A stretch of DNA of 64,000 nucleotides from Candidatus Hydrothermarchaeum profundi (GCA_002011125.2 MTMF02000009.1:460006-524005); one strand, 5' to 3'. Numbered from the stretch's first letter, positions 38,596-57,683 are shown. Translations and numbers: made by a program. The notes: a model not told the origin generated them from the sequence alone.

Positions 38596-38669
38596 CCCGG
38601 CGTAGCTCAACCTGGTAGAGCGGTGGACTGTAGATCCACTGGTTGCTGGTTCAAATCCGGCCGCCGGGA
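38596..38669 (+). tRNA. tRNA-Tyr (GTA), no intron, CCA not encoded
   Basis: CCCGGCG/CGCCGGG acceptor with C1-G72 and A73; GTGGA-CT-GTA-GA-TCCAC; GGTTCAAATCC. Confidence 0.97.
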
Positions 38670-38819
38670 CTACTAAAATTCTACTACTCTTTTTAGCTGA
38701 GCAGTAAAAGATCCCCAGATTTTGAGCTTGGTGGATAAGAAGCTATATCTTAAAAGAAAAAGCTGGAGATTAATTTAATTCCGCACAGCTGGTTAAAACG
38801 GTGGTATTCTTGCGGAATC

Positions 38820-38848
38820 TTTATAAATAATGGAACAAAAATGTTACA
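38820..38848 (+). promoter_or_regulatory. TATA box plus autoregulatory operator of the MNT-HEPN operon
   Basis: TTTATAAA at 38820-38827, then palindrome TGGAACA-AAAA-TGTTACA (38831-38848). TGGAACAAAA repeats at 38851. Confidence 0.6.
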
Positions 38849-38849
38849 C

Positions 38850-39395
38850 ATGGAACAAAATTTAATCTTCGAAATTGTGGATGCCCTTCTAGGCGAGGAG
38901 CTTCATGCAAGGGCGCTGGCTAAAAAGCTGAAAACCAACCACATGACGGTTGTGAGAAAGTTGAGGGGGCTTGTAGAGGAGAATGTGTTAGACTTTAGGC
39001 TGGAGGGAAGAAATAAGGTCTACTTCCTTAAAAAGAGCGTGGAGGCTAGGAGCTATGCAATCATGACAGAACTCTATAAGTTGAACAAAACGCTGAGGAG
39101 GTATCCAGAATTGAGAAATATAGTTGCGAGCATCCAGAAAAACGCAAAGATAAAGCTTGCCGTTCTCTTTGGGAGCTATGCAAAAGGTATAGCAAAGGAA
39201 GGCAGTGACATAGACCTTTTCATAGAAACAAGAGATAGGAGCCTGAAACGGGAGTTGGAACTTCTGAATTCAAAGCTGAGCGTTAAAATTGGAGATTACG
39301 ACAAGTCAAGTCTGCTCATTGGGGAAATTGAGAAAAATCATGTAATAGTAAAAGGAGCAGAATTGTACTATGAGAAAAACAGGTTTTTTTACTAA
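38850..39395 (+). CDS. wHTH-minimal nucleotidyltransferase (MNT) antitoxin
   Basis: N-terminal ArsR-like wHTH; LFGSYAKG....SDIDL. Leaderless ATG at 38850 preferred (track start 38841). Confidence 0.9.
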   Translation: MEQNLIFEIVDALLGEELHARALAKKLKTNHMTVVRKLRGLVEENVLDFRLEGRNKVYFLKKSVEARSYAIMTELYKLNKTLRRYPELRNIVASIQKNAKIKLAVLFGSYAKGIAKEGSDIDLFIETRDRSLKRELELLNSKLSVKIGDYDKSSLLIGEIEKNHVIVKGAELYYEKNRFFY

Positions 39396-39843
39396 GTTGC
39401 ATGAAGAAGGCAAGCTACAACTTGCTGAACCCAGTGAGGAGATAAAGGCAGCCTACCTGAAAAAATCTGAAAGCTACCTTGTATCCGCAAAGCTCCTCTT
39501 AGATAATGGTAGGCTAGAAGAATCCGTTTCTATGGCATACTATAGCATGTATTACATACTTCTCGCCCTACTTTTCAGGGTCGGTATAAAATGTGAAAAT
39601 CACTCTGCTGCAATAATTCTGCTTAAAAAGATATTCAACATAGATAACTCAGAGATATCTTCAGCTAAAAGGGAGAGGATTGACAAGCAGTACTATGTCG
39701 ATTTCTCCAGTGTCGAGGAAGAAGTCGAAGAATTAATTACTACAGCAGAGAGGTTCAATTCCAAAATTCTAGACTTTATAGAGAAACTGAATAGTGAAAA
39801 GATATCAGAGTTCAGGAAGAAGATGGAAAAGCTACTGAGGTAA
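39370..39843 (+). CDS. HEPN domain protein (UPF0332-like), partner of the MNT
   Basis: YL.KS...L.SA..LL; AYYSMYY; NH.A.I; R...QYY; overlaps the MNT gene. Confidence 0.85.
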   Translation: MRKTGFFTKLHEEGKLQLAEPSEEIKAAYLKKSESYLVSAKLLLDNGRLEESVSMAYYSMYYILLALLFRVGIKCENHSAAIILLKKIFNIDNSEISSAKRERIDKQYYVDFSSVEEEVEELITTAERFNSKILDFIEKLNSEKISEFRKKMEKLLR

Positions 39844-40041
39844 TATGCCAACCTTCATGGGATATTATAAAAATTATTAAAAGATTTTTGTCCTGATTTT
39901 TGGTTCAAGGTTTTTCACTTTTAAAGCCTTTCTAATGGGTTAGATTTTTTTCATTTTTCACTTTTCCAGTGCTCTTGGAAAATATATTAGGTGTTTAATT
40001 GAGAATAAAAAGTGTTAATGAGTATGTTAGGTTGTTAGAAG

Positions 40042-40872
40042 ATAAAGGAAGTTTTAGCTTTATTTTTAATCTTTCTAGTGGTATCTTCTCTTGGATGTGC
40101 TGCGCCTACTAGCGTTAAAAAGAGAGATTTCGTTCAGCAACATGGTGTCCTCTCTTCCTTTGATGATCTAAAGAACTGCGGTTATGATGAAGAACTAATA
40201 GCTTTAATACAGAGTTTTTCAGAGCTAGATGCGGGGTTCGATCAGTCCCTTGCTGCTGGGGTTGCAGTAAAGATTTCTTCAGGATTAGAAGAACTTGAAC
40301 CTATCGATCCCACGAGGCTTGAAGACTATGAGAGCTTCAAAAGAAACGTAGAGAGATTTAACAGGGTCTCTGATATAATCAAGGAGAACACTGGTAAGGA
40401 TTTTGGAAAAATAACGATATCGCGAGGTAAATACGACGAAATAATGTCAACTGCAGTGAAATACGCTCCTCTTGTCAACTCTTATAACGAGCTAATCGAA
40501 TCGTCTAAAAATCTTGATCCAGAGGATGAGGACTCGGTAAGGAGATTTTATATCGCGCTATTCCTAGTAGGCGTGGATATTGCGCTAATAAACTCGGGGG
40601 CAATCTACAAAGGGACATATAAGTCGGTCTGGGAGATAAACCAAGCGCTTGGACTGAGAGAAGTTGTTCCTTTCATAGGATACAAAGGATATGGTTTTCT
40701 CCTTTCATCCATACACTGGACGTTAAGGGGGTATATTGAAGGGTTTAAGAACGACGTTTATGAAGTTTTATTAGATGAGACCACGCAAGACCTTAAACGG
40801 GGCCTTAAGAACAAAGGAAAAGACATAAGCGCAACTATTGAAAAAACTCTACAGAGGTTATTGAGACGATAG
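40042..40872 (+). CDS. Putative lipoprotein of unknown function (start uncertain)
   Basis: The frame upstream of the track GTG (40078) encodes IKEVLALFLIFLVVSSLG|C (signal peptide plus lipobox). Only an ATA (40042) is available after an in-frame TAG at 40036. Confidence 0.65.
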   Translation: MKEVLALFLIFLVVSSLGCAAPTSVKKRDFVQQHGVLSSFDDLKNCGYDEELIALIQSFSELDAGFDQSLAAGVAVKISSGLEELEPIDPTRLEDYESFKRNVERFNRVSDIIKENTGKDFGKITISRGKYDEIMSTAVKYAPLVNSYNELIESSKNLDPEDEDSVRRFYIALFLVGVDIALINSGAIYKGTYKSVWEINQALGLREVVPFIGYKGYGFLLSSIHWTLRGYIEGFKNDVYEVLLDETTQDLKRGLKNKGKDISATIEKTLQRLLRR

Positions 40873-40935
40873 AGTGATCCAAGAAGTAGGATCTCTTTAA
40901 GATGTAGTAATCAGTAGACGGAAACTTCACTCTCT

Positions 40936-41037
40936 AGTTCAGATCCTAGTATTCTTCTATTCGCCGGGACTACTAAATCTTCCAATCCGGGCGTGATTCT
41001 TGCCCTATTTCTGCGTGTTTTTTCCATTCCGCTTCTA
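40936..41037 (+). repeat. att-like junction 1 (arm, 7-bp tRNA-Tyr core, conserved end tract)
   Basis: AGTTCAGA-N18-CGCCGGG-ACTACTAAATCTTCC...GGCGTGATTCTTGCCCTATTTCTGC. Confidence 0.75.
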
Positions 41038-56188: not shown

Positions 56189-56203
56189 TATAAGGGACGC
56201 AAT

Positions 56204-56512
56204 ATGCAGAAGGCAAGAATAAAGCTCAGTGGAACAGATCATAAGAAGCTAGAAGAGGTCTGTGCTCAGGTTAAAGAGATTGCCAAGAAGACAGGGGTAG
56301 ATATGGCTGGGCCTATACCCCTACCAACCAAGAGGCTGAGAGTACCGGTAAGAAAATCACCATCTGGAGATGGAACGGCCACTTGGGAGAAATGGGAAAT
56401 GAGGATTCACAAGCGCTTGATAGACATTGAGGCGGATGAGAGGACTATGAGGCAGATAATGCGGGTTAAAGTACCTGACGGCGTTAACATCGAAGTTGAG
56501 CTTAGAGCATAA
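56204..56512 (+). CDS. rps10: 30S ribosomal protein S10 (uS10)
   Basis: [34 protein letters not shown]. Confidence 0.98.
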
Positions 56513-56564
56513 TTCTTGCCTTTTAGGAAATTTTTTATTAGGGTATTATATAAGGATGTTTTAT

Positions 56565-56684
56565 GCCGGGGTAGTCTAGACCGGTAAGGCGCAGGCCTGG
56601 AGTTTTATCTAATATATTCTAGTTAGGAAACCAGATAGCCTGTGTTGCTCATGCAACGCGGGAGTTCAAATCTCCCCCCCGGCG
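56565..56684 (+). tRNA. tRNA-Ser (GGA) with 34-nt intron at 37/38 (56603-56636)
   Basis: GCCGGGG/CCCCGGC; CAGGC-CT-GGA-G; BHB helix CTGG:CCAG; long variable arm GTTGC-TCAT-GCAAC; G73. Confidence 0.95.
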
Positions 56685-56822
56685 CTCATTAAAATCCTTC
56701 ATCAAAGCACGATTCATGCTTATTTTCCGCAGATTTACCCTAATTATCTTGTGCTATTTTTTCATTCACCCTTTAATTCACTCTCAGATTTGAACTTGTA
56801 TCTAATTTTCAGATCAGCAGAG

Positions 56823-57107
56823 CTAACCTTTTTCTATCACTCTCTCTATATAGTCCGTTATCTCTTTGCTTAGAGCCGGATTGAGGGATACTGTTTTCCC
56901 ACCCTTATGTAAAAGGAGATAACCGTCCTCCACAAGAACCTTGACGAGCCCTTTAATCCGCTTCCCATTCCTCTTGACTTTTTTGGAAAGCCAGTTAATC
57001 AGGGTGTCTACGGGCAAATACTTCGCTCCCCAACAACCTTTTCTTAACAACCTGTTCATTATGTCGGCTTTTATTTCCGCATCGCTTTTGACTGACATAA
57101 AGTTCAC
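56823..57107 (-). CDS. Small basic protein, probable winged-helix fold
   Basis: L.R...WG.K; LV..GYLL..K....VSLNP pattern; divergent from the wHTH gene. Confidence 0.7.
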   Translation of the reverse strand: MNFMSVKSDAEIKADIMNRLLRKGCWGAKYLPVDTLINWLSKKVKRNGKRIKGLVKVLVEDGYLLLHKGGKTVSLNPALSKEITDYIERVIEKG

Positions 57108-57168
57108 TTATAATACCTTTTAAAGGAAAAATATAAATACTTTTATCCTCCAATTTGTTCTTGAGAAG

Positions 57169-57546
57169 ATGCCAGAAGAGCTGTACACAAAAAAAGAATA
57201 CGGGTCGTTACTGATAAAGACCCTGGGAGACTCGCCAAAGCTGAGGATAATAGATTTCTTCCTAGACAACCCTATGTTCGACTTTACCAAGAAAGAAGTC
57301 ATCGAAGCCCTAGGAATGAGCAAGCAAACCCTCTACAAGTACTTCCCGGATTTGGAAGAATATGGGGTGATCGAAGTTTCTAGGAAGATAGGAAAAGCCA
57401 AACTCTACAAGATAAACTTGAAGCATCCCCTAGTCAGTATGCTTAGGGAATACGAGAAAAAAATCTCGCTTCAAATAGCAGAGAAAGAAAGAGCCAAACT
57501 TCAAGAACCCGTGCCAACGCAGCCCAGGGAAAAATTGAAAACTTAA
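57169..57546 (+). CDS. Winged-helix DNA-binding protein
   Basis: LGDSP.LRIIDF...DFTK.E.....GMS..TLY.....L...G.I...R.IGKAKLY.IN. Confidence 0.85.
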   Translation: MPEELYTKKEYGSLLIKTLGDSPKLRIIDFFLDNPMFDFTKKEVIEALGMSKQTLYKYFPDLEEYGVIEVSRKIGKAKLYKINLKHPLVSMLREYEKKISLQIAEKERAKLQEPVPTQPREKLKT

Positions 57547-57683
57547 ATCGGCTAACCGCAAAAACCTAAAACCACCAAAAACGGCCATTATAAGTTTTTA
57601 AGTTCAGACCTGAATATTTACCTAGCCCTCGGCGCTTTTTTTACCGGTAAATTAGGGAAAGACAAAGACTATCTAGGAAAGGG

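Follow-up and report, generated by a model that had tools for sequence, protein, structure and literature searches.

Integrase-less cassettes with shared ends and tRNA-matching 8-nt cores stacked behind tRNA genes of Candidatus Hydrothermarchaeum profundi

How do small gene cassettes that encode no recombinase come to lie stacked at the 3′ ends of different tRNA genes, with ends that are shared and a short core that matches the local tRNA? The question is raised by a 64,000-nt stretch of Candidatus Hydrothermarchaeum profundi (GCA_002011125.2, MTMF02000009.1:460006-524005), called the window below and numbered from its first nucleotide, in which one such array follows tRNA-Tyr(GTA) and another follows tRNA-Ser(GGA) (Table 1). 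The window is part of the 1.9-Mb contig C9 of a 2.19-Mb genome with 39% G+C; C8, C16 and C3 are other contigs of the same genome. We interpret the units, with some reservation, as non-autonomous integrative cassettes of 0.7-3.4 kb that are probably loaded by a trans-acting integrase of the tyrosine type, strand exchange taking place within a core of 7-8 bp.

The two arrays share one junction geometry. An AGTT begins at 40936, 42210 and 57601, and 26 nt on, after an 18-nt spacer, stands an 8-nt copy of the acceptor-stem 3′ strand plus discriminator of the upstream tRNA. A preliminary description of this DNA had reported the three junctions with a 7-nt copy; their positions and identical geometry proved exact, the copied segment being 8 nt once the discriminator is counted, and the first two junctions do copy tRNA-Tyr (8/8 and 7/8) and the third tRNA-Ser (7/8). 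We call the conserved right end of 26-29 nt, tctAGTTCAGACCTGAGTatTTACCTAGT, the arm, with the 8-nt core copy next to it, and the conserved left end, which abuts the last base of the tRNA, the tract (CTAnTAAAATCyTTC ... GCAyGATTCtTGC yTATTTT); together they define end family 1, and s1-s6 denote its arm-core sites. The tract stands directly 3′ of s1, of s2 and of tRNA-Ser(GGA) itself, and short inverted repeats of the TAGT-N7-ACTA type surround the core, both as previously described. Such an arrangement is the layout of tyrosine-recombinase core sites, as far as the relevant part of PMC8371274 describes them. The motif as first written has 3 matches in the window, none in 100 shuffles, and the same 3 only in the whole genome; the shuffle test is post hoc, as the motif was written from these very sites.

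The ends are tied exclusively to tRNA ends. An nhmmer profile of the tract gave six matches at E <= 3.6e-5 in the whole genome, the next best having an E of 0.83; four stand directly after a tRNA 3′ end (tRNA-Phe(GAA), tRNA-Ser(GGA), tRNA-Leu(CAA) and the second tRNA-Cys(GCA)) and two after an arm-core copy (s1 and s2). The arm profile returned its four training sites and two weak matches, both downstream of tRNAs and followed by the cores of those tRNAs. With covariance models for arm (R1) and tract (R2), run on this genome and 40 others, 6 arms, with E between 3e-8 and 5e-6, and 7 tracts were found here, and in the 2.19 Mb every one of them lies close behind a tRNA gene or a copied tRNA end. 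The cores after the six arms agree with the upstream tRNA at 8, 7, 7, 7, 5 and 8 of 8 positions; at s6 the spacer is 17 nt and the following tract carries a 5-nt deletion. By an estimate based on 47 tRNAs, about 4% of genome positions are on the same strand as a tRNA and no more than 3.6 kb downstream of it. Six of six arms within that fraction far exceeds chance, so the central prediction of the preliminary description, that the end profiles would match behind many tRNAs with a core to suit each, holds: they match solely downstream of tRNAs, and three further tRNAs came to light, each with its own core. The tRNAs directly upstream of cassettes are full-length (43.5-68 bits), the target tRNA being regenerated intact. 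In the 40 other genomes R1 and R2 gave no match below E 0.004 and three weak ones (E 0.004-0.01) with no tRNA nearby; among 15 further loci, a significant match was found only in L005, a metagenome contig considered below.

Where a cassette stands singly (Ser(GGA), Leu, Phe), the order is tRNA, tract, cargo, arm, core and then unrelated flank, whereas the tandem junctions s1, s2 and s6 read arm-core-tract; together these layouts form the attL/attR pattern expected if a circle whose attachment site, attP, reads arm-core-tract integrates. Both ends are kept in five units, namely B, D, the Leu and Phe cassettes, and A, whose shortened left end retains only the first ~20 nt of the tract. The cargoes are mutually unrelated: MNT-HEPN, PIN-UPF0175, a winged helix-turn-helix (wHTH) pair, methylase/ThaI with DUF7718/HVO_A0114, Fic, and proteins of no recognised family. 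Earlier assignments of MNT-HEPN, PIN and wHTH proteins to the window units stand, but the partner of PIN is a UPF0175-family antitoxin, with no recognised ribbon-helix-helix protein. No PF00589, PF16795 or PF00239 match lies inside any cassette, which agrees with the earlier statement that the units encode no recombinase. Unit C has neither right-end arm nor core before the 5S rRNA gene (43096), and its membrane protein has no homologue in the gap between tRNA-Tyr and 5S of relatives; it is either a truncated cassette or native flank. The tRNA-Cys site consists of a solo tract followed by a TauE fragment.

Metagenome assemblies indicate that the cassettes are modules. Seven runs contain parts of the tRNA-Tyr array, and we compared the contigs of four, X2-X5, of which X3-X5 come from other studies; the chromosomal genes at 43636-56308, uncovered in X3-X5, were not counted as a sign that those organisms differ, and only contigs continuing into unlike DNA were used. 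In X2 all 30 bins are covered by identical pieces, and this run holds the same organism with the same array. In X3, X4 and X5 the match to cassette A has its exact start at 38661 and is preceded by unlike DNA (in X3 with 1 difference in the 443 nt from 38661), and a direct joint connects the end of tRNA-Tyr with the tract of B, leaving out the 2299 nt of A. In X3 and X4 another match sets in behind different cargo at 40933, where the arm of s1 begins, and one X3 contig joins 42249 to 43092. X5 has an s3-like arm-core ahead of the interior of D, a 14-kb contig with only 57528-57629 in common with the window, and a 3191-nt contig made up, in this order, of the tRNA-Tyr end, a left part like that of B, ~1 kb of unknown DNA, core and A to 40359, and finally 42020-42116; this last joint, 40359->42020, is an ordinary illegitimate deletion. 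The same cassettes thus occur in other contexts and order at up to 99.8% identity; they are bordered by core and arm, and their order differs between populations. The joint 57636->56796, which runs backward, and the joining of tRNA-Tyr to the B tract fit other array orders as well as circles, which contigs cannot show. A further X5 joint, 38674->43321, was set aside as T-arm likeness between two tRNAs.

L005, which comes from another organism, carries a ROK-family gene, tRNA-Ser(CGA), a 0.7-kb unit with a ParE-family toxin gene, and an arm and core identical to those of s3 at 33 of 34 positions. The acceptor strand of its tRNA-Ser(CGA) is CCTCGGCG, the very core of s3, whereas the tRNA that s3 follows reads CCCCGGCG. 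Nothing else speaks as clearly for a core that travels with the cassette instead of being copied from the target at insertion, and we give the argument moderate weight. Within the genome, the arms of s3 and s6 are alike at 25 of 29 positions, their cores differ at 2 of 8, and the core of s6 equals its own tRNA exactly.

We picture loading as follows. A circular cassette would carry one site, attP, made up of arm, core and tract, and a recombinase made elsewhere, most likely a tyrosine integrase, would exchange strands inside the core between attP and the tRNA end, regenerating the tRNA and leaving arm and core at the far side; the process may continue today. A newcomer would enter at the tRNA again and push older cassettes outward, for which reason tandem junctions would read arm-core-tract. 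Since the core would be carried by the cassette and differs among members, one end architecture could serve several tRNAs: Tyr, Ser(GGA), Ser(GCT), Leu(CAA), Phe and, probably, Cys. The tract would probably also substitute for the tRNA 3′ trailer and its T-rich terminator. Archaeal integrases prefer tRNA 3′ ends, and their att sites can be as short as the acceptor end, according to the pertinent part of PMC8371274. The idea of a trans-acting integrase, put forward in the preliminary description, agrees with the recombinase-free cassettes and their shuffled orders elsewhere, but the helper enzyme itself was not found.

Several observations weigh against this interpretation. The genome has five PF00589 matches (C9:157 kb, C9:1303 kb, C16, C8 and C3), none of which adjoins an arm or tract; the ends of the integrase elements at tRNA-Cys, tRNA-Thr, tRNA-Glu and on C8 are unlike both; and no XerA scores above the cut-off in the genome. 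No free element bearing attP was found among the small contigs, among viral contigs or, with an exact pattern, among 185,579 species genomes. With marker-gene completeness at 97.65%, a helper recombinase could still be unassembled. Pairwise identity is 62-86% for arms and 30-68% for tracts, so that spread within this genome is not recent, and decay is visible in the short left end of A, unit C without an arm, the solo tract at tRNA-Cys, the 5/8 core of s5 and the gene debris in B. X2 lacks cassette-level joints, a weak point, as contigs drop rare variants. The sign that the core is carried comes down to one C/T position, and the same C-to-T change is met again at C9:1423806, where the core copy belongs to a second end family (see below). 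A tyrosine recombinase normally needs identical overlaps; a family that moves from one tRNA to another would here have to bridge cores that disagree at as many as 5 of 8 positions.

Much of this decay would also be expected if each unit were the inert remnant of a separate, once-autonomous integrase element at a tRNA end, its integrase and most of its genes deleted, its addictive or defensive cargo retained by selection and no loading taking place today; all these elements would have belonged to one family, and the likeness of their ends would go back to common descent. Archaeal tRNA genes are described as collecting degenerate remnants of integrated elements in the relevant part of PMC3718332, and cis-mobilizable elements (CIMEs) as arising by decay of integrative and conjugative elements (ICEs) or integrative and mobilizable elements (IMEs) in that of PMC5704250. 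The truncated left end, missing arm, solo tract and gene debris, the deletion joint 40359->42020, ends that are 14-70% diverged, and integrase elements at other tRNAs of the same genome, one with a pseudogenised integrase, all fit such a history. We nevertheless consider it unlikely. Random deletion should rarely spare both ends, yet five units keep both around 0.9-3.4 kb of unrelated cargo, and no unit keeps an integrase fragment; moreover, the same cassettes recur elsewhere in other order, at the identity given above and with breakpoints at core and arm, and another organism has a 0.7-kb unit with the same arm (L005).

Target-duplicating transposition, in which a trans-acting DDE or Cas1-like transposase inserts elements with imperfect terminal inverted repeats at tRNA 3′ ends and the 8-nt copy is a target-site duplication, would account for the agreement between each core and its tRNA with no further assumption. 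For casposons, both insertion at the 3′ end of tRNA or ef-2 genes and tandem arrangement are reported in the part of PMC6563490 that concerns them. Direct repeats of 8 nt have a length common among target duplications, the right end in reverse complement (ACTAGGTAAAT...) is weakly like the left end (ACTATTAAAAT...) (~7/10 to 11/18), and the genome has one Cas1 gene. That gene, however, is far from the cassettes (C9:784208), the cassettes are free of transposase genes, a Y1 transposase is absent from the whole genome, and the core of s3 matches the L005 tRNA of another organism, not its own target; casposon target duplications, at 14-15 bp, are longer than 8 nt. Altogether we regard transposition as very unlikely. 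Least probable of all is plain homologous recombination, with blocks exchanged through the tRNA gene plus tract, arm or neighbouring cassette and no dedicated enzyme: tRNA-Tyr is 89-95% identical in 14 of the relatives searched (77-84% in the more distant ones), arm-core-tract junctions give 60-100 nt of common sequence and cassette order varies between samples, but first insertion at six tRNAs with matching 8-nt cores and single cassettes with unrelated chromosome as right flank would go unexplained, and the ends (30-86% identity) are too diverged for efficient exchange among family members.

Besides family 1, the genome has a second end family with the same habit. Scanning for exact cores located CCCCGGCG at a distance of 9231 nt beyond tRNA-Ser(GGA); as this distal copy stands behind GGATTTACTAGTA plus 19 nt (8/8 to the tRNA-Ser(GGA) core; L045:3889-3928), the DNA right of s3 is a further 8.3-kb element, E, which those sequences close. 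The box of this second family, GATTTACCAGTA, lies ~20 nt ahead of the acceptor-strand copy, and the repeat starts 4-6 nt earlier, in the T stem. It also closes a HicB/HicA cassette at tRNA-Ser(TGA) and, at tRNA-Leu(CAG), an AbiEi/AbiEii cassette and a PIN cassette, and it is present at the tRNA-Leu(TAA) site; the family thereby serves four tRNAs, Ser(GGA), Ser(TGA), Leu(CAG) and Leu(TAA). No integrase was found in its cassettes. Between the 11-mer and the arm of family 1, at the inner end of the latter (ATTTACCTAGT), there is a likeness that may point to related enzymes for both families.

Table 1. Coordinates of tRNA anchors, cassettes, cores and integrase genes. Positions without prefix refer to the window; C9, C8, C16 and C3 are contigs of the genome.
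Feature	Position	Strand	Content or remark
tRNA-Tyr(GTA)	38596..38670	+	anchor of first array; core CGCCGGGA at 38662-38669
Accessory stretch, 4.4 kb	downstream of tRNA-Tyr, up to 5S rRNA		
Cassette A, 2.3 kb	38670..40961	+	shortened left end (CTACTAAAAT...); arm 40933-40961
A, gene	38841-39395		wHTH-MNT nucleotidyltransferase
A, gene	39370-39843		HEPN
A, gene	40078-40872		264-aa protein, no family
Core s1	40962..40969	+	CGCCGGGA, 8/8 to tRNA-Tyr
Cassette B, 1.3 kb	40970..42235	+	tract 40970-41024; arm 42207-42235
B, gene debris	41030-41275		includes C-terminal remnant of MqsA-like zinc-finger antitoxin, 41177-41273
B, gene	41276-41785	-	PIN/DUF3368 toxin
B, gene	41782-42087	-	UPF0175 antitoxin
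Core s2	42236..42243	+	CGCTGGGA, 7/8 to tRNA-Tyr
Unit C	42244..43090	+	tract 42244-42298
C, gene	42423-42899	-	158-aa membrane protein
5S rRNA	43096-43216		then tRNA-Asp, intron-bearing tRNA-Lys
RNA-polymerase and translation-factor genes	between tRNA-Lys and tRNA-Ser(GGA)		
tRNA-Ser(GGA) with intron	56565..56684	+	anchor of second array; core CCCCGGCG at 56677-56684
Further accessory genes	right of tRNA-Ser(GGA)		
Cassette D, 0.95 kb	56685..57626	+	tract 56685-56739; arm 57598-57626
D, gene	56823-57107	-	94-aa open reading frame
D, gene	57169-57546	+	125-aa wHTH protein
Core s3	57627..57634	+	CCTCGGCG, 7/8 to tRNA-Ser(GGA) CCCCGGCG; 8/8 to tRNA-Ser(CGA) of L005
Element E, 8.3 kb	57635..64000, on to C9:525920 (window ~65915)	+	second end family; also PLD-SNF2 helicase
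E, gene	58323-59360	-	Fic
E, gene	59353-62469	-	MmeI/Eco57I-type restriction-modification enzyme
s4	C9:1081858		tRNA-Leu(CAA); TCCCCGCA vs CCCCCGCA, 7/8; cassette 2.8 kb, two unknown proteins
s5	C9:~280831	-	tRNA-Phe(GAA); CTGCTGCA vs CCACCGCA, 5/8, differences all transitions; cassette 3.4 kb, N4/N6 methylase, wHTH, ThaI endonuclease, DUF7718/HVO_A0114 pair
s6	C9:~1182123	-	tRNA-Ser(GCT); CCCCGACG, 8/8; cassette 1.9 kb, Fic and 85-aa open reading frame
397-aa integrase with zinc ribbon	C9:156815-158008		beside other tRNA-Cys; 10.6-kb element, 13-nt repeat
Integrase pseudogene	C9:1303608-1304562		beside tRNA-Thr
Cut integrase copy	start of C16 (C16:1-9945, L009)		
437-aa divergent tyrosine integrase	C8:115025-116338		
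Weak PF00589 match	C3		

An integrase bounded by the family-1 ends, which the preliminary description had proposed to look for, turned up neither in this genome nor in 40 relatives, viral contigs or species-representative genomes. The arm pattern has 0 matches in 185,579 species genomes, and neither arm nor tract pattern has any in viral contigs; the 30 matches of the tract pattern in species genomes are all bacterial and were judged chance. Among metagenome contigs L005 is the sole true match of the arm pattern, that in L006 falling inside a bacterial gene by chance. A split integrase of SSV type was discarded, there being no PF16795 match in the genome and no reading-frame pattern in the ends. 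The 127-aa open reading frame at 57740-58123 (-) was likewise rejected as an integrase fragment, being unlike both intact integrases, without Pfam or PHROG family and with atlas matches below 0.8. It adjoins s3 on the right, the frames upstream of it are broken, and it may be debris at the left end of element E. The single serine recombinase of the genome, at C9:1376706-1377149, lies 1 kb upstream of tRNA-Ser(CGA), away from the cassettes.

Elsewhere in the genome there is a family of tyrosine integrases of ~397 aa with a C-terminal zinc ribbon. They begin ~55 nt after tRNA-Cys, tRNA-Thr (the pseudogene) and tRNA-Glu (a remnant, C9:1796757-1796900), and ahead of them stands a conserved left end that includes a 17-bp palindrome pair; the region of the tRNA-Cys element is C9:146500-158300 (L007). 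Behind the cut integrase on C16 come a type I restriction-modification system and a Piwi/pAgo-SIR2 pair. At C8:109000-121000 (L010), DarT-Macro (DarTG) toxin-antitoxin genes and the 437-aa integrase lie downstream of a tRNA, and no tRNA-end repeat was found there.

The remnant in cassette B corresponds to the C-terminal part of a zinc-finger antitoxin of 81 aa, which we read as MqsA-like; an intact paralogue of the debris with a 102-aa partner open reading frame stands at C9:~788800-789350 (L052:1047-1597), 4 kb from the only Cas1 gene of the genome. Both intron-bearing tRNAs of the window, tRNA-Lys(TTT) (43395-43508, intron ~39 nt) and tRNA-Ser(GGA) (intron ~34 nt), are missed by a default ARAGORN run, the latter having been found by Rfam, and ARAGORN with the intron option missed tRNA-Tyr.

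The closest named relatives by EF-2 likeness are Hydrothermarchaeota assemblies, at <=79% identity. In the two relatives that have tRNA-Tyr and 5S on one contig, G006 and G015, the interval measures 0.8 and 2.0 kb, against 4.4 kb here, and holds different genes and no core copies. Matches of cassette DNA in the 38 genomes searched for the phylum (this one included) lie at 65-71%, are confined to toxin-antitoxin genes in five other genomes, and have no tRNA nearby. In seven related assemblies (G013, G026, G030, G035, G002, G020, G024), tRNA-Tyr lies between a few bases and ~1 kb from a contig end, which would fit variable or repeated neighbouring DNA breaking the assemblies.

If one enzyme serves all sites, a short exchangeable sequence would determine which target it chooses, with a bearing on how integrases change specificity and on retargetable insertion tools. 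A bolder version, speculative and in our view doubtful, is that one trans-acting recombinase reads arm and tract only, and that the 8-bp core is a swappable address that could be re-aimed to any tRNA; this would amount to gene capture with a programmable overlap, functionally an integron distributed over the tRNA set, by which defence and toxin-antitoxin modules would be moved between vent archaea. With the cassettes, modules of the toxin-antitoxin, restriction-modification and Fic kinds have a concrete route from one uncultured hydrothermal archaeon to another, which would also account for the clustering of defence genes behind tRNA genes; the two end profiles, in turn, let such cassettes be located and delimited to the base in metagenomes.

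How do these arrays compare with known systems? Integrons, including archaeal ones, are built on IntI, attI and attC; their arrays consist of small cassettes, many of them toxin-antitoxin units, each closed by a recombination site, and one enzyme serves many cassettes. The term integron-like, applied earlier to the present arrays, does not carry over: neither IntI nor attI lies near them, genes stand on both strands and the anchor is a tRNA end. Folding of the three junctions on both strands gave Z-scores from -0.08 to -3.09 and no common structure; lacking attC-like hairpins, the arrays are not an integron in mechanism, and the analogy is one of outcome.

Closer likenesses exist among elements at tRNA and other small-RNA genes. 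The CIMEs of Streptococcus and other bacteria, in the account that the relevant part of PMC5704250 gives, are likewise integrase-less units with attL and attR, in tandem at a tRNA 3′ end, that rely on an integrase encoded elsewhere, as we suggest for the present cassettes; by definition they derive from ICEs or IMEs by decay, and what moves them is the integrase of a neighbouring element that has accreted at one site. Here, by contrast, no integrase-bearing member occurs in the window arrays or at the other family-1 sites, units go down to 0.7-0.95 kb, the same ends serve six tRNAs with different cores, and the host is an archaeon. Tycheposons of Prochlorococcus, so far as the part of bioRxiv 10.1101/2020.12.28.424599 devoted to them goes, are also cargo elements, at seven tRNA genes, with older ones pushed outward, partial tRNA copies as separators and integrase-less remnants, but they have their own tyrosine or serine recombinase, tRNA-specific integrase clades and att sites of ~40 nt; in our arrays the shared tRNA segment is 8 nt only, the arms are common across tRNAs and no member has an integrase. 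In archaeal elements of the SSV, pTN3, pT26-2 and SNJ2 types, related integrases target different tRNAs and tandem arrays are known, yet these elements encode their integrase, the SSV type splitting its own gene on integration, and target switching appears, in what PMC8371274 says of it, as divergence of integrase lineages, not as a core swap between shared arms. The ssrA islands of Dehalococcoides are many, tandem and variable in cargo at one small-RNA gene, with an integration module in 16/31; they differ in their single target gene, their size of ~12 kb and the presence of an integration module in the family (PMC3146451, in the part that bears on them).

Remnants of archaeal elements at tRNAs are known as well, from the portions of PMC3718332 and PMC6563490 that treat them. 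Among the papers listed by full-text searches on integration at archaeal tRNAs, on elements in tandem and on toxin-antitoxin units that are non-autonomous, none described cassettes with shared ends and tRNA-specific 8-nt cores, which does not prove that such a description is absent. Tandem stacking at tRNA genes and integrase-less relics are thus already familiar; what the arrays of Candidatus Hydrothermarchaeum profundi add to them is a single end architecture that recurs at six tRNAs while its 8-base core is swapped, a further, related end family that is interleaved with the first at one and the same tRNA, and evidence, from comparison across samples, that cassettes are shuffled.

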